A stretch of DNA of 32,000 bases from the NCBI RefSeq assembly GCF_000023965.1, contig NC_013202.1:2370001-2402000 (forward strand). Direction: 5' to 3'. The translations under genes were made by a program, and so were the position numbers. The DNA is from Halomicrobium mukohataei DSM 12286. GTDB lineage: Archaea > Halobacteriota > Halobacteria > Halobacteriales > Haloarculaceae. This document shows positions 7,580 through 26,652 of the stretch, piece by piece. Below the pieces are notes generated by a model that worked only from the letters and a program-made list of their open reading frames with translations, ran no database searches and was not told the origin of the DNA. How positions within the stretch are numbered: position 1 is the stretch's first letter; every line of letters starts with the position of its first letter.

Positions 7580-7667
7580 GCGTCACGCCAGGCGGCTGTG
7601 ACGGGGTCGTTCCAGTCGTCGCTCGGCTGACCGGCACGTTTATTCCCCCGATCTGTCACACTCACGT

Positions 7668-8015
7668 ATGGTTCTTCAGGTCGGACTGGTGGAAAGCACG
7701 CTCGTTCTCGGATTCGTGTTCGTCGTCATCCTCCTCGCGATCGGCCTGTCCGCACTCGCCATCTGGGTCGACCACCGCAAGGAGATGGCGCTCATCGAAC
7801 AGGGCCGGTACCCCGAAGATCCCAACCCTGCGTGGGTACTGGCCGCCGGATTCCTCCTCTTCGGGTACGGTATCGGCAGCGCTATCAACGGCTTCGCGGC
7901 CGGCGCACCGGGCGTTCAGGGTGCTGTCCCGGCGTTTCTCGGTCTCGCCGCGCTGGCGTACTACTTCGTCCGCCGTCGGGAGGGCATCGAGCGCGCCCGC
8001 TCCGACGGCGACTGA
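7668..8015 (+). CDS. hypothetical small membrane protein
   Basis: The 115-aa product has 3 hydrophobic helices. A GTTTATT box lies about 27 nt upstream of the ATG. Confidence 0.6.
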   Translation: MVLQVGLVESTLVLGFVFVVILLAIGLSALAIWVDHRKEMALIEQGRYPEDPNPAWVLAAGFLLFGYGIGSAINGFAAGAPGVQGAVPAFLGLAALAYYFVRRREGIERARSDGD

Positions 8016-8108
8016 TACCGCCGGCACGCGTCAGTTCGATCACTCCGACAGACACGTCGAACCGAGAGGCGCAACGCCTTTGATGGCCGTCCGCAAAGAC
8101 GTGTTCAG

Positions 8109-9287: not shown

Positions 9288-10186
9288 ATCTCGACGAACT
9301 CCAGTCAGTCCAGTCCCGCGAGCGCCAGACCGACAGCCTCCAGCAGCTGCGGGAGTCGTTCTACGCCGACGCGGGGGAGTTCATCCAGCAGCTCCGCGAG
9401 GAGCGCGACAGCGTGGCCGATCGGGCCGACGACCCCTTCGACGCCCCGGAAGTCAACCGCCTGACCGACGACATCAACACCGCCGAGTCGACGGTCGAAG
9501 CGATCTACGAGCGCCGCGTCGGCAAGATCGTCAAGATGGCGTCGCTGGCCGCCGCCGACATGCCGGCCGAAGAGGAGGGGCTGACCCGCGAGGAGCGGGA
9601 CCTCTTCGAGACGCTGGTTAGCGCCATCGAGAACAACCGCGATCACGTCTTCGACGTGCTCGCTGGCGACGTGACGCCGGACGCTGTCGAGGACGCGGGA
9701 GCCGACGAGAGCCCCACGGACGAGGTGTCGTCCGAGTCCGACGACGCCAAGCCGGAACCCGAGCCGGAGCCGCCCGCCGACCCCTCGCCGAGCGACGAGC
9801 CGACGACGATCGAAGCGGCCGACCTGATGGGCAGCGACGAGAGCGTCGACCTGCCGCCCGACGCGCCGCCGGACGGTCCGCCAGAGGGGGGTGCCAGCCG
9901 GGACGACCCGCTGGCCGGCGAGCAGTCGCCGGCCTCCGACGGCGGCACGGTACCCTCGCCCCCGTCCGACGACGCGGGGCCGACCTCGCCGGACGCGCCC
10001 GACACCGGCGACGAGCCGGCGACGCCGACGATCGAGCGCGCGACCGTCCGGATCACGGACGATGTCGGCGAGATCTTCGGGATCGACCAGCGCGAGTACG
10101 ACCTCTCGACCGACGATGTGGTCACGCTCCCCGAGCAAAACGCCGCGCCGCTGGTCGATCGGGACGCCGCCGAACGCCTCGACTGA
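9284..10186 (+). CDS. ginS: GINS complex subunit (Gins51-type) with a long acidic/proline-rich internal linker
   Basis: A helical A-domain (LQQLRESFYADAGEFIQQLREE...) is followed by a C-terminal B-domain (VRITDDVGEIFGIDQREYDLSTDDVVTLPEQNAAPLVDRDAA). It is translationally coupled to priS, as is known for archaeal Gins/PriS pairs. Confidence 0.85.
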   Translation: MNLDELQSVQSRERQTDSLQQLRESFYADAGEFIQQLREERDSVADRADDPFDAPEVNRLTDDINTAESTVEAIYERRVGKIVKMASLAAADMPAEEEGLTREERDLFETLVSAIENNRDHVFDVLAGDVTPDAVEDAGADESPTDEVSSESDDAKPEPEPEPPADPSPSDEPTTIEAADLMGSDESVDLPPDAPPDGPPEGGASRDDPLAGEQSPASDGGTVPSPPSDDAGPTSPDAPDTGDEPATPTIERATVRITDDVGEIFGIDQREYDLSTDDVVTLPEQNAAPLVDRDAAERLD

Positions 10187-10264
10187 GACGGAGTATCGTC
10201 GCCGTTTGCCAGGTCGACCGCACGCAGTCGTGCGGTCGATTCGGGAACGATCGACGAGTCCGTA
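10187..10264. repeat. 78-nt palindromic element, subfamily 1 (copy E)
   Basis: The outer arms are ACGGA..CGTCG / CGACG..TCCGT and the inner perfect arms are TCGACCGCACG / CGTGCGGTCGA (loop CAGT). It starts directly after the GINS TGA stop (10184-10186) and ends 3 nt before the htrA-like stop (10268-10270). Confidence 0.85.
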
Positions 10265-10267
10265 CGA

Positions 10268-14122: not shown

Positions 14123-14176
14123 GTCCCGATCATGGAACGGCTGTGGCTTATCCTTGGCGGCGACGGGTCGGACTCA

Positions 14177-14256
14177 TACGGACGGTTGTAGGCGTTTACC
14201 CAGTCGACCGCACGACGGTGTGCGGTCGATCTGGTAACGACCTACAACTTTCCGTA
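14177..14256. repeat. 80-nt palindromic element, subfamily 1 (copy D)
   Basis: The outer arms are TACGGACGGTTGTAG / CTACAACTTTCCGTA and the inner arms are GTCGACCGCAC / GTGCGGTCGA plus TTACC / GGTAA. It is flanked by the direct triplets TCA (14174-14176) and TCA (14257-14259). Confidence 0.85.
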
Positions 14257-14284
14257 TCAGAAATCGGGTATCACTCTGTTACCT

Positions 14285-14342: not shown

Positions 14343-14699
14343 ATGTCATCCACGTTTTCCCCGGAGCCAGACGAGACCTGCCAGGTCGTCGAGTCCTTCG
14401 ACCTGATCGGATCGAAGTGGCGACTGGCGGTGCTGTACGAACTGCTCGACGGCGAACAGCGGTTCAACGAACTCAAGCGAGAGACCGGCACCAGTTCCCG
14501 CACGCTCTCGCGGGTCCTCGACGACCTGCAGGACCGCGCCTTCGTCGACCGTCGCGTCGAGGAGGCTGCACCGGTCGCGACCTACTACACGCTGACCGAG
14601 AAGGGCGAGGCGCTCGCACCGGTGTTCGACGAGATCGGCGACTGGGCCGACGAGTGGCTCGACGACGCCGTCGCGACGCCGGAGATCGAGACGCAGTGA
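14343..14699 (+). CDS. HxlR family winged-helix transcriptional regulator
   Basis: The stretch IGSKWRLAVLYELLDGEQRFNELKRETGTSSRTLSRVLDDLQDRAFVDRR is a typical HxlR/MarR-like wHTH. Confidence 0.9.
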   Translation: MSSTFSPEPDETCQVVESFDLIGSKWRLAVLYELLDGEQRFNELKRETGTSSRTLSRVLDDLQDRAFVDRRVEEAAPVATYYTLTEKGEALAPVFDEIGDWADEWLDDAVATPEIETQ

Positions 14700-14777
14700 C
14701 GCGGATCGTGTAGCGGTTTCCCGATAGTCGTCTCTCCCGTGGCGACGCTCGCCAGCACGCACCTTCGGTAATGCGTA
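14700..14777. repeat. 78-nt diverged palindromic element, subfamily 1 (copy G)
   Basis: It aligns along its length with copy B1 (..GGAT.C.TGTAGC.GTTTCCCG.T...CGTGGCGACG.T.GCC...GCACC...CGTA). It starts directly after the hxlR TGA (14697-14699) and is followed by TGA (14778-14780). The arms are partly decayed. Confidence 0.65.
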
Positions 14778-14837
14778 TGACACGAGTACGGTCCGACAGC
14801 GTAGCTTTTTCCACCTGCAAGTACCACTGTCGACTCG

Positions 14838-17839: not shown

Positions 17840-18272
17840 GGTAGTGTTCAGATAAGAGATCGAGAGTAGCATCGTCGAGGCACCGAAAGCCCTCGTGCAG
17901 TTGCGGTCCCGCGGCTCGCTGCGCGCGCTCCGCGTGCTTGCCGAGAGGGACTCTCCGAGTCCCTCTGGCCGTGCGAACGGGCGCTTTGCGCCCGTGAGCA
18001 GACTTTGCCGGGGTTCCCGCAAGGGCCGGCCGGTGGACCCGGCCGGCTATAACGTGACGGCTCCGCCGTCACGCAGCACTCGCCCTTTCATCCGCCAAGT
18101 TTCAGACGGTGAACCAGCCGATTCCTGGTGGATGAAAGGGCGAGGTGCGGTCGGCGGTTCTGCGGCGGCACTATCGAACGCAGTGAAGATATCCGCCACA
18201 GAACCGCCGAGCGTGCCGAGGGCTTTCGGTGTCTATATGTCAGTCAGTGCTGCTGCTTATCTGAACACCGCC
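17840..18272. mobile_element. 433-bp non-coding MITE-like element: 17-bp imperfect TIRs, 8-bp target-site duplication, highly structured interior
   Basis: The left TIR is GGTAGTGTTCAGATAAG (17840-17856). The reverse complement of the right TIR is GGCGGTGTTCAGATAAG (18256-18272), a 15/17 match with 13 contiguous. The direct repeats GCCGAGCC at 17832-17839 and 18273-18280 abut both ends. No plausible ORF is present, since the internal ORFs are Arg/Ser/Pro-rich. Confidence 0.7.
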
Positions 18273-18319
18273 GCCGAGCCCTGGCCACCGCGGTCGTCAC
18301 GAACGCGCGGCCGACGGCG

Positions 18320-19399: not shown

Positions 19400-19447
19400 G
19401 CGCGCTTCCAGACGGTATCCCCGGCCACACGGACACAGCCCCGCTCG

Positions 19448-19524
19448 GACGACCCGCTGTCCGTTCGTCGCCGCGTTCGCTACTCGTGGTGGCGAGACGT
19501 GTGACAGACGGACAGCGTCCCGTA
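19448..19524. repeat. 77-nt palindromic element, subfamily 2 (copy I, diverged)
   Basis: It has 10-bp arms CGCTGTCCGT (19455-19464) / ACGGACAGCG (19508-19517). It aligns with copy B2 (CTGTCC.GT.CGT...CG.TTCGC.AC.CG.TG.TGGCGA...ACAG..GGACAG) and is the same 77-nt length as B2 and C. Confidence 0.65.
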
Positions 19525-19602
19525 CGAAGTATCGTAGATCGTTACCGGATCGATCTCACGATGGCGTGGGCTCGACCGGACAGACGGCGACGACACTCCG
19601 CC

Positions 19603-19737
19603 TCAGGACTCGTCGAGGAGAAGCTCCTGTGTGGCGTCGTCGACCGACGCCAGTCGATCCGCGATCCGGTCACCGAACGCGACGAATCCGAAGGCCAGAA
19701 CGGCGAGCATCGCGCCACCGACGAGTGTCAATGCCAT
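19603..19737 (-). CDS. possible 44-aa small membrane protein (below the ORF-track length cut-off)
   Basis: It translates to MALTLVGGAMLAVLAFGFVAFGDRIADRLASVDDATQELLLDES: one hydrophobic helix plus an acidic tail, with an ATG start and GC3-rich codons. Confidence 0.4.
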   Translation of the reverse strand: MALTLVGGAMLAVLAFGFVAFGDRIADRLASVDDATQELLLDES

Positions 19738-19825: not shown

Positions 19826-20224
19826 ATGAGCATCGAGTCCGAGACCTCCGATTCGGCCGTCGACAGCCACGTCGAAGAGATCGCCGCCGAGTTCGGCGAC
19901 GCGATCACACAGCTACCGGTGTACCAGCGCTTCGCCGAAGCCAAAACGGCCGTCGAGAACGACGAACAGGCCCAGGAGAAGATCGAGGAGTTCGAGTCCA
20001 TTCGCGAGGAGTTCATGCTCGCACGCCAGACCGGACAGGCCGACCAGGAAGCGCTCAGAGAGCTCCAGGCCGCACAGGAAGAGCTCCACGACCTGCCGGT
20101 GATGAGCGAGTACCTCGAAGTGCAGAGCGAACTCGAACTGCGTCTGCAGGAACTCAACGAAGTCGTCTCCGAGCAGCTCGTCGTCGACTTCGGCGAGAAG
20201 GCCGGCGGCTGCTGCGAGGACTGA
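19826..20224 (+). CDS. YlbF/YmcA-like helical protein with C-terminal Cys-Cys
   Basis: The 132-aa product is an acidic helical protein (PVYQRFAEAKTAVENDEQAQEKIEEFESIREEF...) that resembles the YlbF family. It ends in GGCCED. Confidence 0.6.
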   Translation: MSIESETSDSAVDSHVEEIAAEFGDAITQLPVYQRFAEAKTAVENDEQAQEKIEEFESIREEFMLARQTGQADQEALRELQAAQEELHDLPVMSEYLEVQSELELRLQELNEVVSEQLVVDFGEKAGGCCED

Positions 20225-20303
20225 TACGGTTTCTTGTAGTTGCTTACCGGTGATCGTCGCCACGGAGTAGACGATCACCGGTAAATCGCTACAATAATCC
20301 GTA
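20225..20303. repeat. 79-nt palindromic element, subfamily 1 (copy A, best preserved)
   Basis: The outer arms TACGGTTTCTTGTAG / CTACAATAATCCGTA pair at 13 of 15 positions. The inner arms TTACCGGTGATCGTC / GACGATCACCGGTAA pair at 15 of 15, with an 11-nt loop. It is flanked by TGA (20222-20224, the stop codon of the upstream gene) and TGA (20304-20306). Confidence 0.9.
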
Positions 20304-20649
20304 TGACGCCGCGGCTCGCGATCGTGTCGCTGCTTTCTTCGCGGAGTGACGACGGCGACCGACGGCCGGCGAGTAGCGCGTCGGCGGGCCGCCAGTATCG
20401 TCGGCTGGTCCCGGTGTCGTCGTCCGAAGTCTGCCGCCATTCGTGCTATCAGAGTCTGAAATGGGGCGCGAAGGTCGCTGCTACTGGCGTTCGTCGGGGG
20501 CGTCGCGAACAGCCACTCCCCGGGCCACAGGTGGGCTTGAGGCGTCTGGAAACCGCCACAGTTCCCGAATACAGAACCTGATAATTCGGCGCGTAGTCTT
20601 ATTACCGAGTAGTGGCCACCGGTAGACAAGCGGAGCGAGTACTATTCAA

Positions 20650-22279: not shown

Positions 22280-23470
22280 ATGAGTGACTCTCAGGCGTAC
22301 GAGGAGATTACCGTGGTCTCTGATGGGGTGACCGTCACCAAACGGTACGAGGCCGACGAGTTCCCGGTGCCTGCCATCGCGTTCAAGTTCGCGTCCAGCC
22401 GGACCGAACCGGTGAGCGTGCGGCTGACCGACGTGGTTCCGGAGGACGTGGCAGTCGAGGATCTGGGCTTTCACCCGGAGTACGGGAGCGAGTTCTGGAC
22501 GATCGACGACGACGAGATCGCCTTCGAGCGTGAACTCGAACCCGAATCGGAGTACACGACGGTGTACGGAATCCGCGCGACCGGCACCGACAACGTCGAG
22601 CAGTTCCTCACCGAACCACAGATCGACCGCATCGACCCGCCGCTGGAAGACGACGGGGGCGAACTCGTCGGCGAAGGATCCGACGCTGTCAAAGACGTGA
22701 TCAGCGGCGACGCCGACAGCGTTCCGGGGCTCGAAGAGTCCGACGACGAGGACATCGAGACCCTCGACCTGAAGGATCCGAACAACGAGGGCCAGCAGCG
22801 CCGTGCCGCCGAACGCACTCCCGAGGAGACGGACGGCGACGCCGAGGAGGCGTCCGAGGACGGATCGGCCCAGCAGGCGGCGAACAACGGGACTGCGAGC
22901 AGCGTCGAAGTCGAGGGCGGGAGTCTCGTCGCCGCGATGGCGAACGAACTCCGGAACAACGAGGTCCGGAAAGAGGACGTCCAGATCCTCCGGAAGGCCT
23001 TCGACCTCGCGAGCGACGACGGCTCCGTGACGGCCCGGCTCGACAAGCTCCAGAAAGACGTCTCCGACGTCGTCGCGTACACCGACGCACTCGAAGAGTT
23101 CCTCGACGAGAACGGCACCGGCGAACAGCTCATCGACGAGTTCGAGTCCGAGGTCGAGCAGTTCCGCTCCGAAGTCGAGGAGTTCGAGTCCGAACTGGCA
23201 TCGGTCAAGTCGACGGCCGCCGAGAACGGCGCTCAGATCGACGGACTCGCCGACGGAGTCGAGCAGATCGACGAGAGTGTCGACGACGTGACAGACGACG
23301 TATCGGAGCTGGAGTCGACCCTCGACGGCGTCCAGGACGACCTCGAAGAGATCCGCGAGGAGATGGCCGATGCGGGCGTCGAGAGCCAGATCGAAGAGAT
23401 CGACGAGGAGATTGCCGAGCTCAAAGAGTGGCGCGAACAGCTCTCGTCGGTCATCGGTGGCGGCGACTGA
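22280..23470 (+). CDS. very acidic protein: about 120-aa N-terminal globular domain, low-complexity acidic linker, long C-terminal coiled coil
   Basis: The 396-aa product has strong codon bias. Heptad-like repeats (EFESEVEQFRSEVEEFESELASV...LESTLDGVQDDLEEIREEM) are present. I recognised no family. Confidence 0.75.
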   Translation: MSDSQAYEEITVVSDGVTVTKRYEADEFPVPAIAFKFASSRTEPVSVRLTDVVPEDVAVEDLGFHPEYGSEFWTIDDDEIAFERELEPESEYTTVYGIRATGTDNVEQFLTEPQIDRIDPPLEDDGGELVGEGSDAVKDVISGDADSVPGLEESDDEDIETLDLKDPNNEGQQRRAAERTPEETDGDAEEASEDGSAQQAANNGTASSVEVEGGSLVAAMANELRNNEVRKEDVQILRKAFDLASDDGSVTARLDKLQKDVSDVVAYTDALEEFLDENGTGEQLIDEFESEVEQFRSEVEEFESELASVKSTAAENGAQIDGLADGVEQIDESVDDVTDDVSELESTLDGVQDDLEEIREEMADAGVESQIEEIDEEIAELKEWREQLSSVIGGGD

Positions 23471-24609: not shown

Positions 24610-25254
24610 ATGAGTGAGCCACACGCCGACCAGCCGGTCCACACCGCGGGCACGCCGCTGGACGACGCCAGCGTCGCCGTCGTGATGATCCACGGCCGCG
24701 GAGCCAGAGCCGAGGGATTTCTCCAGCTCGCAGACGAGATCGCCGTCGACGGCGTCGCGTATCTCGCACCGCAGGCACAGCGCGGGAGCTGGTACCCCAA
24801 CCGTTTCGTCGACCCGATCGAGAGCAACGAGCCACACCTCACCGCCGCACTCGGCGTCGTCGCGGACACGATCGAAAGAGCCCTCGCAGCGGGCCTCGAC
24901 CACGAACAGATCGTCCTGATGGGGTTCTCTCAGGGTGCCTGTCTCGCCAGCGAGTACGTCGCCCGGAACCCCCGCGCGTACGGTGGACTCGCCGCCTTCA
25001 GCGGCGGACTCATCGGACCGCTCGGGATGGCGTTCGACCACGACGGGGAACTCGACGGGATGCCGGCCTTCTTCGGCTGTAGCGACTCCGATCCGCACAT
25101 TCCGGAGACTCGCGTCACCGAGTCTGCGGACGTGTTCGAGCGCCTCGGAGCCACCGTCGAGACGCGACTCTACGAGGGCATGGGCCACACGATCGTCGAC
25201 GACGAGGTCGAGTACGTCGTCGATCTGCTGTCGACGCTGACGGGTTCGGACTGA
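24610..25254 (+). CDS. phospholipase/carboxylesterase family alpha/beta hydrolase
   Basis: It has the GFSQGA nucleophile elbow, a downstream D and H (GMGHTI), and VVMIHGRGA. I chose the start at MSEPHADQP (24610). Confidence 0.85.
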   Translation: MSEPHADQPVHTAGTPLDDASVAVVMIHGRGARAEGFLQLADEIAVDGVAYLAPQAQRGSWYPNRFVDPIESNEPHLTAALGVVADTIERALAAGLDHEQIVLMGFSQGACLASEYVARNPRAYGGLAAFSGGLIGPLGMAFDHDGELDGMPAFFGCSDSDPHIPETRVTESADVFERLGATVETRLYEGMGHTIVDDEVEYVVDLLSTLTGSD

Positions 25255-25329
25255 TACGGATTCTCGTAGCAGTTTCCCGGTGATCACCTCGTGGCGACGA
25301 TTGCCGGTGAGCACCTACGAGAGTCCGTA
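25255..25329. repeat. 75-nt palindromic element, subfamily 1 (copy B1)
   Basis: The outer arms TACGGATTCTCGTAG / CTACGAGAGTCCGTA form 15 pairs including one G.U. The core is related to copy A in inverted order. It is flanked by TGA (25252-25254, the esterase stop) and TGA (25330-25332). Confidence 0.85.
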
Positions 25330-25332
25330 TGA

Positions 25333-25409
25333 TACTGTCGACTGTCCCGTCGTGAAGCGATTCGCCACCCGGTGTGGCGAAATCGATCACAGTGGGACAG
25401 CCGGCGGTA
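25333..25409. repeat. 77-nt palindromic element, subfamily 2 (copy B2)
   Basis: The paired arms are CTGTCCC / GGGACAG, GTGA / TCAC, CGATT / AATCG and CGCCA / TGGCG. It starts directly after the TGA that also flanks B1. Confidence 0.8.
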
Positions 25410-25502
25410 CGACACCGCCGGTGAGATTCTCACCGGGCGGGAACGATCCCGCACCGGTGACCAACGTCACTTATCCGTCTCGAACGCCTTGTCTCAACTC
25501 GA

Positions 25503-26510
25503 ATGCTGTCAGACGAGTTCGGTCGCGAGGTCTCGGGCGTCCGCGTCTCGCTGACCGATCGGTGTAACTTCGACTGCGTCTACTGCCACAACGAGGGGCT
25601 GGGAGACACGCGCGGCCCACTGGCGGCCCAGGACGACGAGCTCTCGACGGACCGGGTCGTCGACTTCCTCGAAGTGGCCGCGGACCTCGGCGTCGACTCG
25701 GTGAAGTTCACCGGCGGGGAACCGCTGCTCAGAGAGGACCTCGCCGAGATCGTCGAGCGGACGCCCGACGAGATGGCGGTGTCCCTGACGACGAACGGGA
25801 CCTACCTTCCCGGGCGAGCGTCCGAACTCGTCGACGCCGGACTCGAACGAGTCAACATCTCCCAGGACGCACTCGACCGGGAGGCGTTCGCCGAACTCAC
25901 CCAGAGTGGCGCGTACGACCGCGTGCTGGAGGGCGTCGAGGCGGCGGTCGACGCCGGACTCGCCCCGGTGAAGATCAACATGGTGGTGTTCGAGCCGACG
26001 GCGGGGTACGTTCCGGAGATGGTCGATCACGTCGTCGAGAACGAGGGGCTTCGCCTCCAGCTCATCGAGTACATGCCCGAGTTGGCCGGCCATCCGGAGT
26101 GGGCGATCGACATCGATCGCGTCCACGACTGGCTGTCCGAACGGGCCGACCGGATCGAGCACCGCCAGATGCACGACCGGCGGCGGTACTTCGTCGCGAG
26201 CGACGACGGCGACCGCGAGGGGATGGTCGAGATCGTCGACCCGGTGGGCAACGAGACGTTCTGTGCGAACTGCCACCGGGTGCGACTCACCCACGACGGC
26301 TACCTGAAGGGCTGTCTGAACCGCAACGACGACCTCCGGTCGATCGGCGAGACGAAGTCTCGCATGCGCGATGCGTTCCGGGCGACCGTGGCCAGCCGCG
26401 TCCCCTACTACGGCGAGTACATGGTCGAGACCGAGGACGGCTGGGAACGCGACGAGCGGTACCGCGACGGGGAGGGCGACCGCGCCCCCTACGCCTACAC
26501 CGAGGACTGA
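25503..26510 (+). CDS. moaA: GTP 3',8-cyclase MoaA (radical SAM, molybdenum cofactor biosynthesis)
   Basis: It has the CNFDCVYC radical-SAM cluster motif, a C-terminal [18 protein letters not shown] second-cluster motif, and FTGGEPLLR. Confidence 0.95.
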
Positions 26511-26587
26511 TACGGGCGGTCGTCGGAATCTCCCCGCTTTCGCCGCCCTGGGAGGCGAATCGATTCACGACGGGACAGCCGACGGTA
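26511..26587. repeat. 77-nt palindromic element, subfamily 2 (copy C)
   Basis: One arm (reverse complement TACCGTCGGCTGTCCCGTCGTGAATCGATTCGCCTCCC.GG) matches B2 at about 47 of 52 positions, while the other arm is decayed. It starts directly after the moaA TGA (26508-26510) and is followed by TCA. Confidence 0.8.
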
Positions 26588-26652
26588 TCACGTGCCCCGT
26601 CGCGGCCTCGCGAAGTCGTGGCTTTTTGCCCTCCGGCGGCCTGTGTTCGAGT

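Follow-up and report, generated by a model that had tools for sequence, protein, structure and literature searches.

The 32,000-nt stretch of Halomicrobium mukohataei DNA analysed here (the window; 66% G+C) carries genes that are followed, from the first base after their TGA stop codon, by a palindromic repeat of approximately 80 nt. The arrangement raises the question of whether such repeats are mobile elements that enter stop codons and recreate them by a short target-site duplication, as an earlier note on this DNA had proposed, or whether they reach or persist at gene ends by some other route. The question was approached by describing the copies of the window, by comparing filled with empty sites in related genomes, and by relating a wider census of copies to gene ends.

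Palindromic elements of the window

A profile search (nhmmer) recovered nine palindromic copies of 75–80 nt in the window, six belonging to subfamily 1 and three to subfamily 2 (Table 1), which corresponds to one copy per 3–4 kb. Six of the nine begin at the base directly 3′ of a TGA stop codon. Genes were called by codon-position GC and identified by Pfam, which supports the GINS, HxlR, YlbF-like, alpha/beta-hydrolase esterase and MoaA assignments. Both the gene calls and Pfam agree with the five plus-strand TGA stops that the earlier note had described as abutting copies (10184–10186, 14697–14699, 20222–20224, 25252–25254 and 26508–26510), and the flanking triplets that it listed were all found as given when rechecked. 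The five subfamily-1 copies that it named are real, but a sixth, the minus-strand copy at 19521–19605 (copy G), had been overlooked. The 44-aa minus-strand ORF upstream of copy G is a called gene in CP045142.1, and the YlbF-like protein of the window has identical coding in CP045142.1 and in H. mukohataei reads.

Table 1. Element copies and one empty target site in the window, in order of position.
Feature	Subfamily	Position	Strand	Core	Flanking triplets	Context
Copy E	1	10184..10267	+	78 nt	TGA, far CGA	GINS TGA stop
Copy D	1	14174..14259	+	80 nt	TCA/TCA	between divergent rhomboid and hxlR, off stop
Copy H	1	14697..14780	+		TGA/TGA	hxlR TGA stop; old, palindrome decayed
Copy adjoining G	2	19445..19527	-		TCG/CGA, degenerate	
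Copy G	1	19521..19605	-		TGA, far CGG	TGA stop 19603-19605 of 44-aa ORF; degenerate ends
Copy A	1	20222..20306	+	79 nt, palindromic, 20225-20303	TGA/TGA	YlbF-like TGA stop
Empty target		23468..23470	+			GAC TGA stop of gene 22280..23470; subfamily-1 copy here in H. katesii
Copy B1	1	25252..25332	+	75 nt	TGA/TGA	esterase TGA stop
Copy B2	2	25330..25412	+	77 nt	TGA, far CGA	starts on right-hand TGA of B1
moaA copy	2	26508..26590	+	77 nt	TGA, far TCA	moaA TGA stop

The core of the element is a near-palindrome of 75–80 bp, mostly 78–80 bp, a size that leaves no room for a transposase gene. Its arms are complementary across approximately 34 nt, constituting true terminal inverted repeats, and follow the conserved pattern TACKGnnnGYTGTAnnnnnnTACCG. 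Among 110 arms, terminal positions 1–3, 5 and 11–14 (TGTA) are conserved and the ends are always TA, as would be expected of a transposase-binding terminal repeat; the inner arm sequence varies by lineage (TACGGA, TAGTGA, TACTGCCGG). Young copies have RNA folds of −43 to −54 kcal/mol (z −5 to −8), copy A, which shares 96% identity with a JP60 plasmid copy, folding at −43 kcal/mol (z = −7.2). Arms and loop are found in both orientations relative to the TGA (copies A and P30018 versus P94580; H, B1 and P102991 versus A). When 20225–20303 is set against 94583–94661 of NZ_CP039376.1 the arms are swapped and the loop keeps the same orientation, and such flipping of the loop relative to the arms is expected from recombination within the palindrome.

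Filled and empty target sites

The window and the orthologous H. katesii locus share 97% identity (99% for Dph2), and their alignment breaks exactly at the elements. Copy E and the copy at the moaA stop are common to both, and copy D is 94% identical to a copy found in H. katesii only. Copy G is missing from H. katesii, in which the counterpart of the adjoining subfamily-2 copy sits directly 3′ of the TGA of the 44-aa ORF. The site of copy A is element-free there (GAGGAC TGA CC...), and the target at 23468–23470, which reads GGCGAC TGA CGCGACC in the window, is filled in H. katesii (locus L001), where GGCGAC TGA is followed by 80 nt and then by TGA CGCGACC. Copies B1 and B2 are also lacking from H. 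katesii, and the residue TGA TACGGA that remains in their place indicates that they were lost by imprecise deletion.

Nine pairs of filled and empty sites were found between related genomes, the empty member having one TGA (or TAA) and the filled member two; strain-level polymorphism accounts for seven of the nine, each on a stop codon. Five clean pairs, each with a single triplet at the empty site, come from the JP60 and LC1Hm plasmids (94% identity). Haloarcula locus L013 reads GGCGAG TAA, element, TAA CCGAACTCG, and loci L016 and L022 read GGCGAG TAA CCGAACTCG; in Halosimplex, L010 is filled and L009 is empty. The elements are mobile, and since a single triplet at empty sites becomes two at filled sites, the repeated triplet is a 3-bp target duplication.

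Two other readings of the junctions were rejected. A 2-bp TA duplication is inconsistent with the empty sites, at which there is no TA. The GAC-TGA gene end is not supplied by the element, as empty sites already end in GAC TGA, so that GAC is part of the target. On the LC1Hm plasmid, the sites orthologous to NZ_CP039376.1 139061, 193668 and 20564 contain only the right-hand 20–45 nt of an element, and these right-end remnants indicate that partial deletion removes copies.

Two further differences between the window and H. katesii were observed. An insert of ∼430 bp at 17855–18273, missing from H. katesii, is bounded by terminal inverted repeats (GTGTTCAGATAAG/CTTATCTGAACAC), has a direct repeat of 8 bp (GCCGAGCC) and contains hairpins at 18079–18144 and 18151–18210; it is a different, larger MITE-like element. 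At 7580–8070 the window contains a small membrane-protein ORF ending GGCGAC TGA, in place of which H. katesii has a short unrelated sequence.

A census of 1.77 Mb, made up of the window, the JP60 plasmid and 80 orthologous loci from other Haloarculaceae and their relatives, yielded 55 full-length copies counted as independent, which came from 15 or more genomes; nine copies lie within the 32 kb of the window and 20 on a 222-kb plasmid. The flanking triplets are identical in 33 of the 55 copies and of T-N-A form in 32 of those, and the next triplet outward, which served as the control, is identical in 0 of 55. The tally of flanks (TGA/TGA 20, TCA/TCA 9, TAA/TAA 2, TTA/TTA 1, TGA/CGA 6, TGA/TCA 4 and others 13) identifies the target as T-N-A with a centre biased to G or C, and where both flanks are T-N-A their centre bases correspond directly in 32 copies versus 4 in which they are complementary (p = 2e-6). 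The duplicated triplet tracks the target, one inverted-repeat type being found with TGA/TGA and elsewhere with TAA/TAA or TTA/TTA. The same flank pattern was seen in 22 further copies from hypersaline metagenomes, retrieved by a metagenome scan with the 14-nt end TACTGCCGGCTGTA whose matches were mostly random and from unrelated environments.

Some junctions depart from this pattern. The far triplet is CGA in 6–8 copies, for which simple decay is no obvious explanation. Flanks of the form TGA...TCA occur in four copies, two of which lie between convergent genes (L033 3414–3498 and L039 4277–4362), the TGA and the TCA being the stops of the two genes; copies of this kind are probably the result of an inversion in which two palindromic copies recombined. 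In some places abutting copies have a triplet in common, as do B1 and B2 with their single TGA, and the three triplets seen there for two elements would be expected if one had entered the duplicated triplet of the other. At 46521–46770 of NZ_CP039376.1 (L081), a subfamily-2-type tandem array with a period of 81 nt lies directly 3′ of a TGA stop and has TGT joints.

Much of what the earlier note had proposed is borne out by these comparisons. Its interpretation of the direct triplet as a 3-bp target-site duplication stands, single triplets at empty sites being matched by two at filled ones, as does its view that insertion regenerates the stop, element-free orthologues terminating at the same codon. 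It had suggested comparing related strains and tabulating flanks and distances to stops; orthologous empty sites carry a single TGA (or TAA), and the table compiled from the 1.77 Mb of Haloarculaceae DNA has both matching flanks and stop enrichment. Its T-S-A target captured the dominant TGA and TCA but was too narrow, given the TAA/TAA and TTA/TTA copies that extend it to T-N-A. The restriction of the duplication to subfamily 1 has to be abandoned, as younger subfamily-2 copies are flanked by TGA/TGA (plasmid) or TAA/TAA (Haloarcula).

Stop codons, transposition and rival explanations

A real stop codon is abutted by 34 of the 55 copies (31 TGA, two TAA and one TAG); background stop usage in the census loci is TGA 57%, TAG 26% and TAA 17%, and the near absence of TAG indicates that a sequence is recognized and not stop function. 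In agreement with the enrichment that the earlier note had anticipated, this fraction far exceeds the ∼8% of non-coding T-S-A sites that are stops (p ∼1e-23), a background figure that understates the true stop share since the gene caller was conservative and the non-coding class is inflated. Of the 38 copies within 60 nt downstream of a stop, 34 lie on the stop itself versus ∼50% expected (p = 6e-6), and coding-like sequence is found on both sides of one copy only. GAC precedes the stop in 16 of the 34 copies, compared with 14% of all TGA stops (p = 4e-6), and C is present at −1 in 82% of stop-abutting copies versus 49% of the background. Within the window, four of the seven GAC-TGA gene ends are occupied, and a fifth in H. 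katesii, compared with one of 12 other TGA ends; of the seven polymorphic insertions, the five on plasmids are without GAC. A palindromic target, GAC-TNA-GTC, is not supported, GTC following two of the 34 copies against a background of 3.4%.

Particular stops have also been occupied more than once. The stop of the ylbF-like gene (GAGGAC TGA) received three independent insertions: a subfamily-1 copy in Halomicrobium, a different type in Halosimplex and an element resembling subfamily 2 in Halorientalis. That of gene 22280..23470 is occupied in H. katesii, in L033 and in the Haloarcula clade of L013 (TAA; the copy has since decayed). T-N-A specificity, the preference for GAC and a crude tolerance model do not fully account for the excess on stops, which reflects either stronger selection against other 3′ positions than was assumed or the targeting of a gene-end feature.

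The copies very probably represent a MITE superfamily of Haloarculaceae, whose members are non-autonomous transposons with inverted repeats, a T-N-A target and a 3-bp duplication. A transposase acting in trans would make a 3-bp staggered cut at 5′-T-N-A-3′, mostly at TGA or TCA and sometimes at TAA or TTA, and repair would duplicate the triplet. Because TGA and TAA are themselves stops and the gene-side duplicate remains intact, insertion into a stop codon should alter no protein, and would shift the downstream signals away as one block. Placement on stops would then result from the T-N-A requirement combined with an upstream preference for C, and especially for GAC (genes of these acidic proteomes end most often in Asp-stop), and with the loss of coding and promoter insertions. 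Inserted copies would subsequently decay through point mutation and partial deletion, and renewed targeting of the duplicated triplet would generate abutting copies. The position of copy D away from any stop indicates that a gene end is not required for insertion.

An insertion sequence with matching ends, for which the earlier note had suggested a search, did not come to light: the sample of ∼2.3 Mb of related DNA yielded neither an autonomous element nor a transposase with such ends and T-N-A duplication. No autonomous partner emerged from exact inverted 11-mers starting with TA and 40–4000 nt apart, from a single-arm profile for lone ends, or from any inverted repeats 500–3500 nt apart with identical T-N-A flanks. 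Nor was one found in the 2.3 Mb, which took in the LC1Hm plasmid and halophile metagenome contigs, among paired TA...TA ends bordered by T-N-A, 300–4000 nt apart and complementary at 14 or more of 18 positions, the sole candidates being pairs of separate short copies. The metagenome scan with TACTGCCGGCTGTA likewise contained no insertion sequence. As no partner was found, we can only infer the class of enzyme; the neutrality of stop insertions and the relative weights of targeting and selection are likewise inferred. At L184 1645–2025, subfamily-2 ends lie 380 nt apart with TGA/TGA flanks around an AT-rich, non-coding 290-nt loop insert.

Single-strand insertion of the Y1/HUH type (IS200/IS605- or REPIN/RAYT-like), in which an element ending in TGA would be placed 3′ of a TGA without duplication, is highly improbable. 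It would accommodate the REP-like form of the element, a hairpin throughout with GTAG...CTAC around an inner stem, the same-strand TGA at both junctions, and the six copies of one subgroup that share one orientation relative to the TGA (p ∼0.03); moreover, the plasmid annotation includes a TnpB gene and IS200/IS605 relatives are abundant in haloarchaea (PMC3119063). However, for one end sequence the far triplet co-varies with the target, which a duplication predicts and an element-borne end does not, both arm and loop orientations relative to the TGA occur, and no Y1 gene was seen flanked by copies. IS605-type elements and their non-autonomous derivatives (PATEs) also lack terminal inverted repeats (PMC3119063), which are truly present here. 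A duplicated triplet that varies with the target, terminal inverted repeats and insertion in both orientations together argue for a staggered-cut transposase and not for Y1/HUH. Equally improbable is a functional 3′-end hairpin (a terminator, mRNA stabilizer or translation-termination signal) maintained by selection and spread by recombination. Strong hairpins directly after stops would be co-transcribed, and REP elements near stop codons affect mRNA and translation in E. coli. Against such a role, copies are precisely present or absent, with the duplicated triplet, between close relatives and also occur away from gene ends (copy D); old copies lose their structure, that at hxlR folding no differently from shuffled sequences (z = 0.05) and that at moaA having z = −1.5; deletion remnants persist; and most orthologous genes are without an element, including 43 of ∼50 ylbF-like genes ending GAC TGA. 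Presence and absence, copies outside gene ends, decay and remnants all argue against a conserved structural RNA, and an Rfam scan of the window gave no match, although a secondary, exapted effect on individual transcripts may exist.

The staggered-cut transposon is compatible with different routes to the stop codon, and active targeting of gene ends by the machinery, through an extended upstream motif or the ribosome-free, R-loop-prone DNA that begins at the stop, with stops as a selected ‘safe haven’, is possible though doubtful. The preference of copies for the stop over T-S-A triplets elsewhere in these 3′ regions speaks for it, as do the clean polymorphic insertions (seven of seven on stops, five of them without GAC), the position of both TAA-flanked locus copies on TAA stops when stops are ∼7% of non-coding T-W-A sites, the repeated occupation of the same stops across genera and the enrichment of C at upstream positions −1, −4 and −7. 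Yet about one-third of the copies are off stops, including copy D, which lies in a divergent promoter region, and others 24–53 nt downstream of a stop, and the avoidance of TAG indicates that stop function as such is not read. The excess on which targeting rests was, in addition, judged against a crude model of selection against promoter, terminator and coding insertions and an inflated non-coding class, and the proposal names no mechanism or enzyme. It is accordingly rather unlikely that the elements are guided to gene ends by a property of the stop position, either an extended signature upstream or the point at which ribosome cover gives way to free transcript and DNA, and not merely by T-N-A; were this so, stop codons would have evolved as a harmless landing site, and the mover would not be a recognizable IS partner.

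Significance and relation to known systems

Small non-coding transposons are commonly said to enter intergenic regions; for this family the point of entry can be given to the base, as a stop codon that the duplication restores. The family would provide a clean natural case in which the target choice of a mobile element renders its insertion harmless, and a harmless target would in turn permit dense colonization of compact genomes. Recurrent use of the same stops across genera offers a tractable system in which target choice might be separated from selection. For annotation, the elements explain the 80-nt hairpin found at +1 after many Haloarculaceae genes and ORFs that enter repeats; on NZ_CP039376.1, annotated hypothetical-protein genes at 94428..94628 and 144684..145154 extend into copies, and are probably repeat-caused annotation artefacts. 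Inversions and deletions are also likely to arise at the palindromic copies.

The literature examined, which comprised general work on haloarchaeal MITEs and SMRs and a MITE atlas, contained no account of this family or of stop-codon insertion, and the family is apparently undescribed as judged by this comparison. The 2024 atlas reports that Haloarculaceae are rich in predicted MITEs (PMC11602168). The SMR-A and SMR-B repeats of Haloquadratum walsbyi are transposase-free mobile repeats of 80–110 bp with prominent inverted terminal repeats (PMC3119063), and resemble the present elements in their strain-specific insertions and strong target preference, their means of mobilization not being established (PMC3119063). 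SMRs, however, make no target duplication and enter IS605-type palindromes (PMC3119063), whereas the elements described here duplicate T-N-A at gene ends.

MITEs of the IS630/Tc1-mariner group have TA-like element ends as found here but a 2-bp TA duplication in place of 3 bp. Another family of ∼80-nt palindromes, with ends TACCGTCGGACAG and TA flanks, was observed at L015 8501–8582, L053 484–566 and L019 12926–13008, and its flanks suggest a 2-bp duplication. Correia elements similarly duplicate a short fixed target, although this is TA and the elements are longer. REP/REPIN and BIME sequences (RAYT) are, like the present family, abundant extragenic palindromes that form long hairpins just 3′ of genes and are co-transcribed, but REPINs are Y1-dependent and make no duplication. 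We know of no REP, REPIN, BIME or Correia element for which placement on the stop codon is systematic and results from a duplication that restores the codon.

The closest parallels in mode of insertion are with the Tourist-like MITEs of eukaryotes (PIF/Harbinger) and with bacterial IS5-family subgroups (IS1031/IS427/ISL2), the latter reported to make 3-bp T-N-A duplications and having GAG/GG ends; the link to IS5 subgroups that the earlier note had raised is a possible lead. Short non-coding elements with terminal inverted repeats and a 3-bp T-N-A duplication, a target preference wider than the triplet and high copy number near genes are common to these systems and to the family described here. 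In contrast to them, the centre of the target is mostly G or C and not A or T, the ends are TAC and not the GAG/GG of the IS5 subgroups, and the whole element is one 80-bp palindrome that lies, in most cases, exactly on a stop codon.
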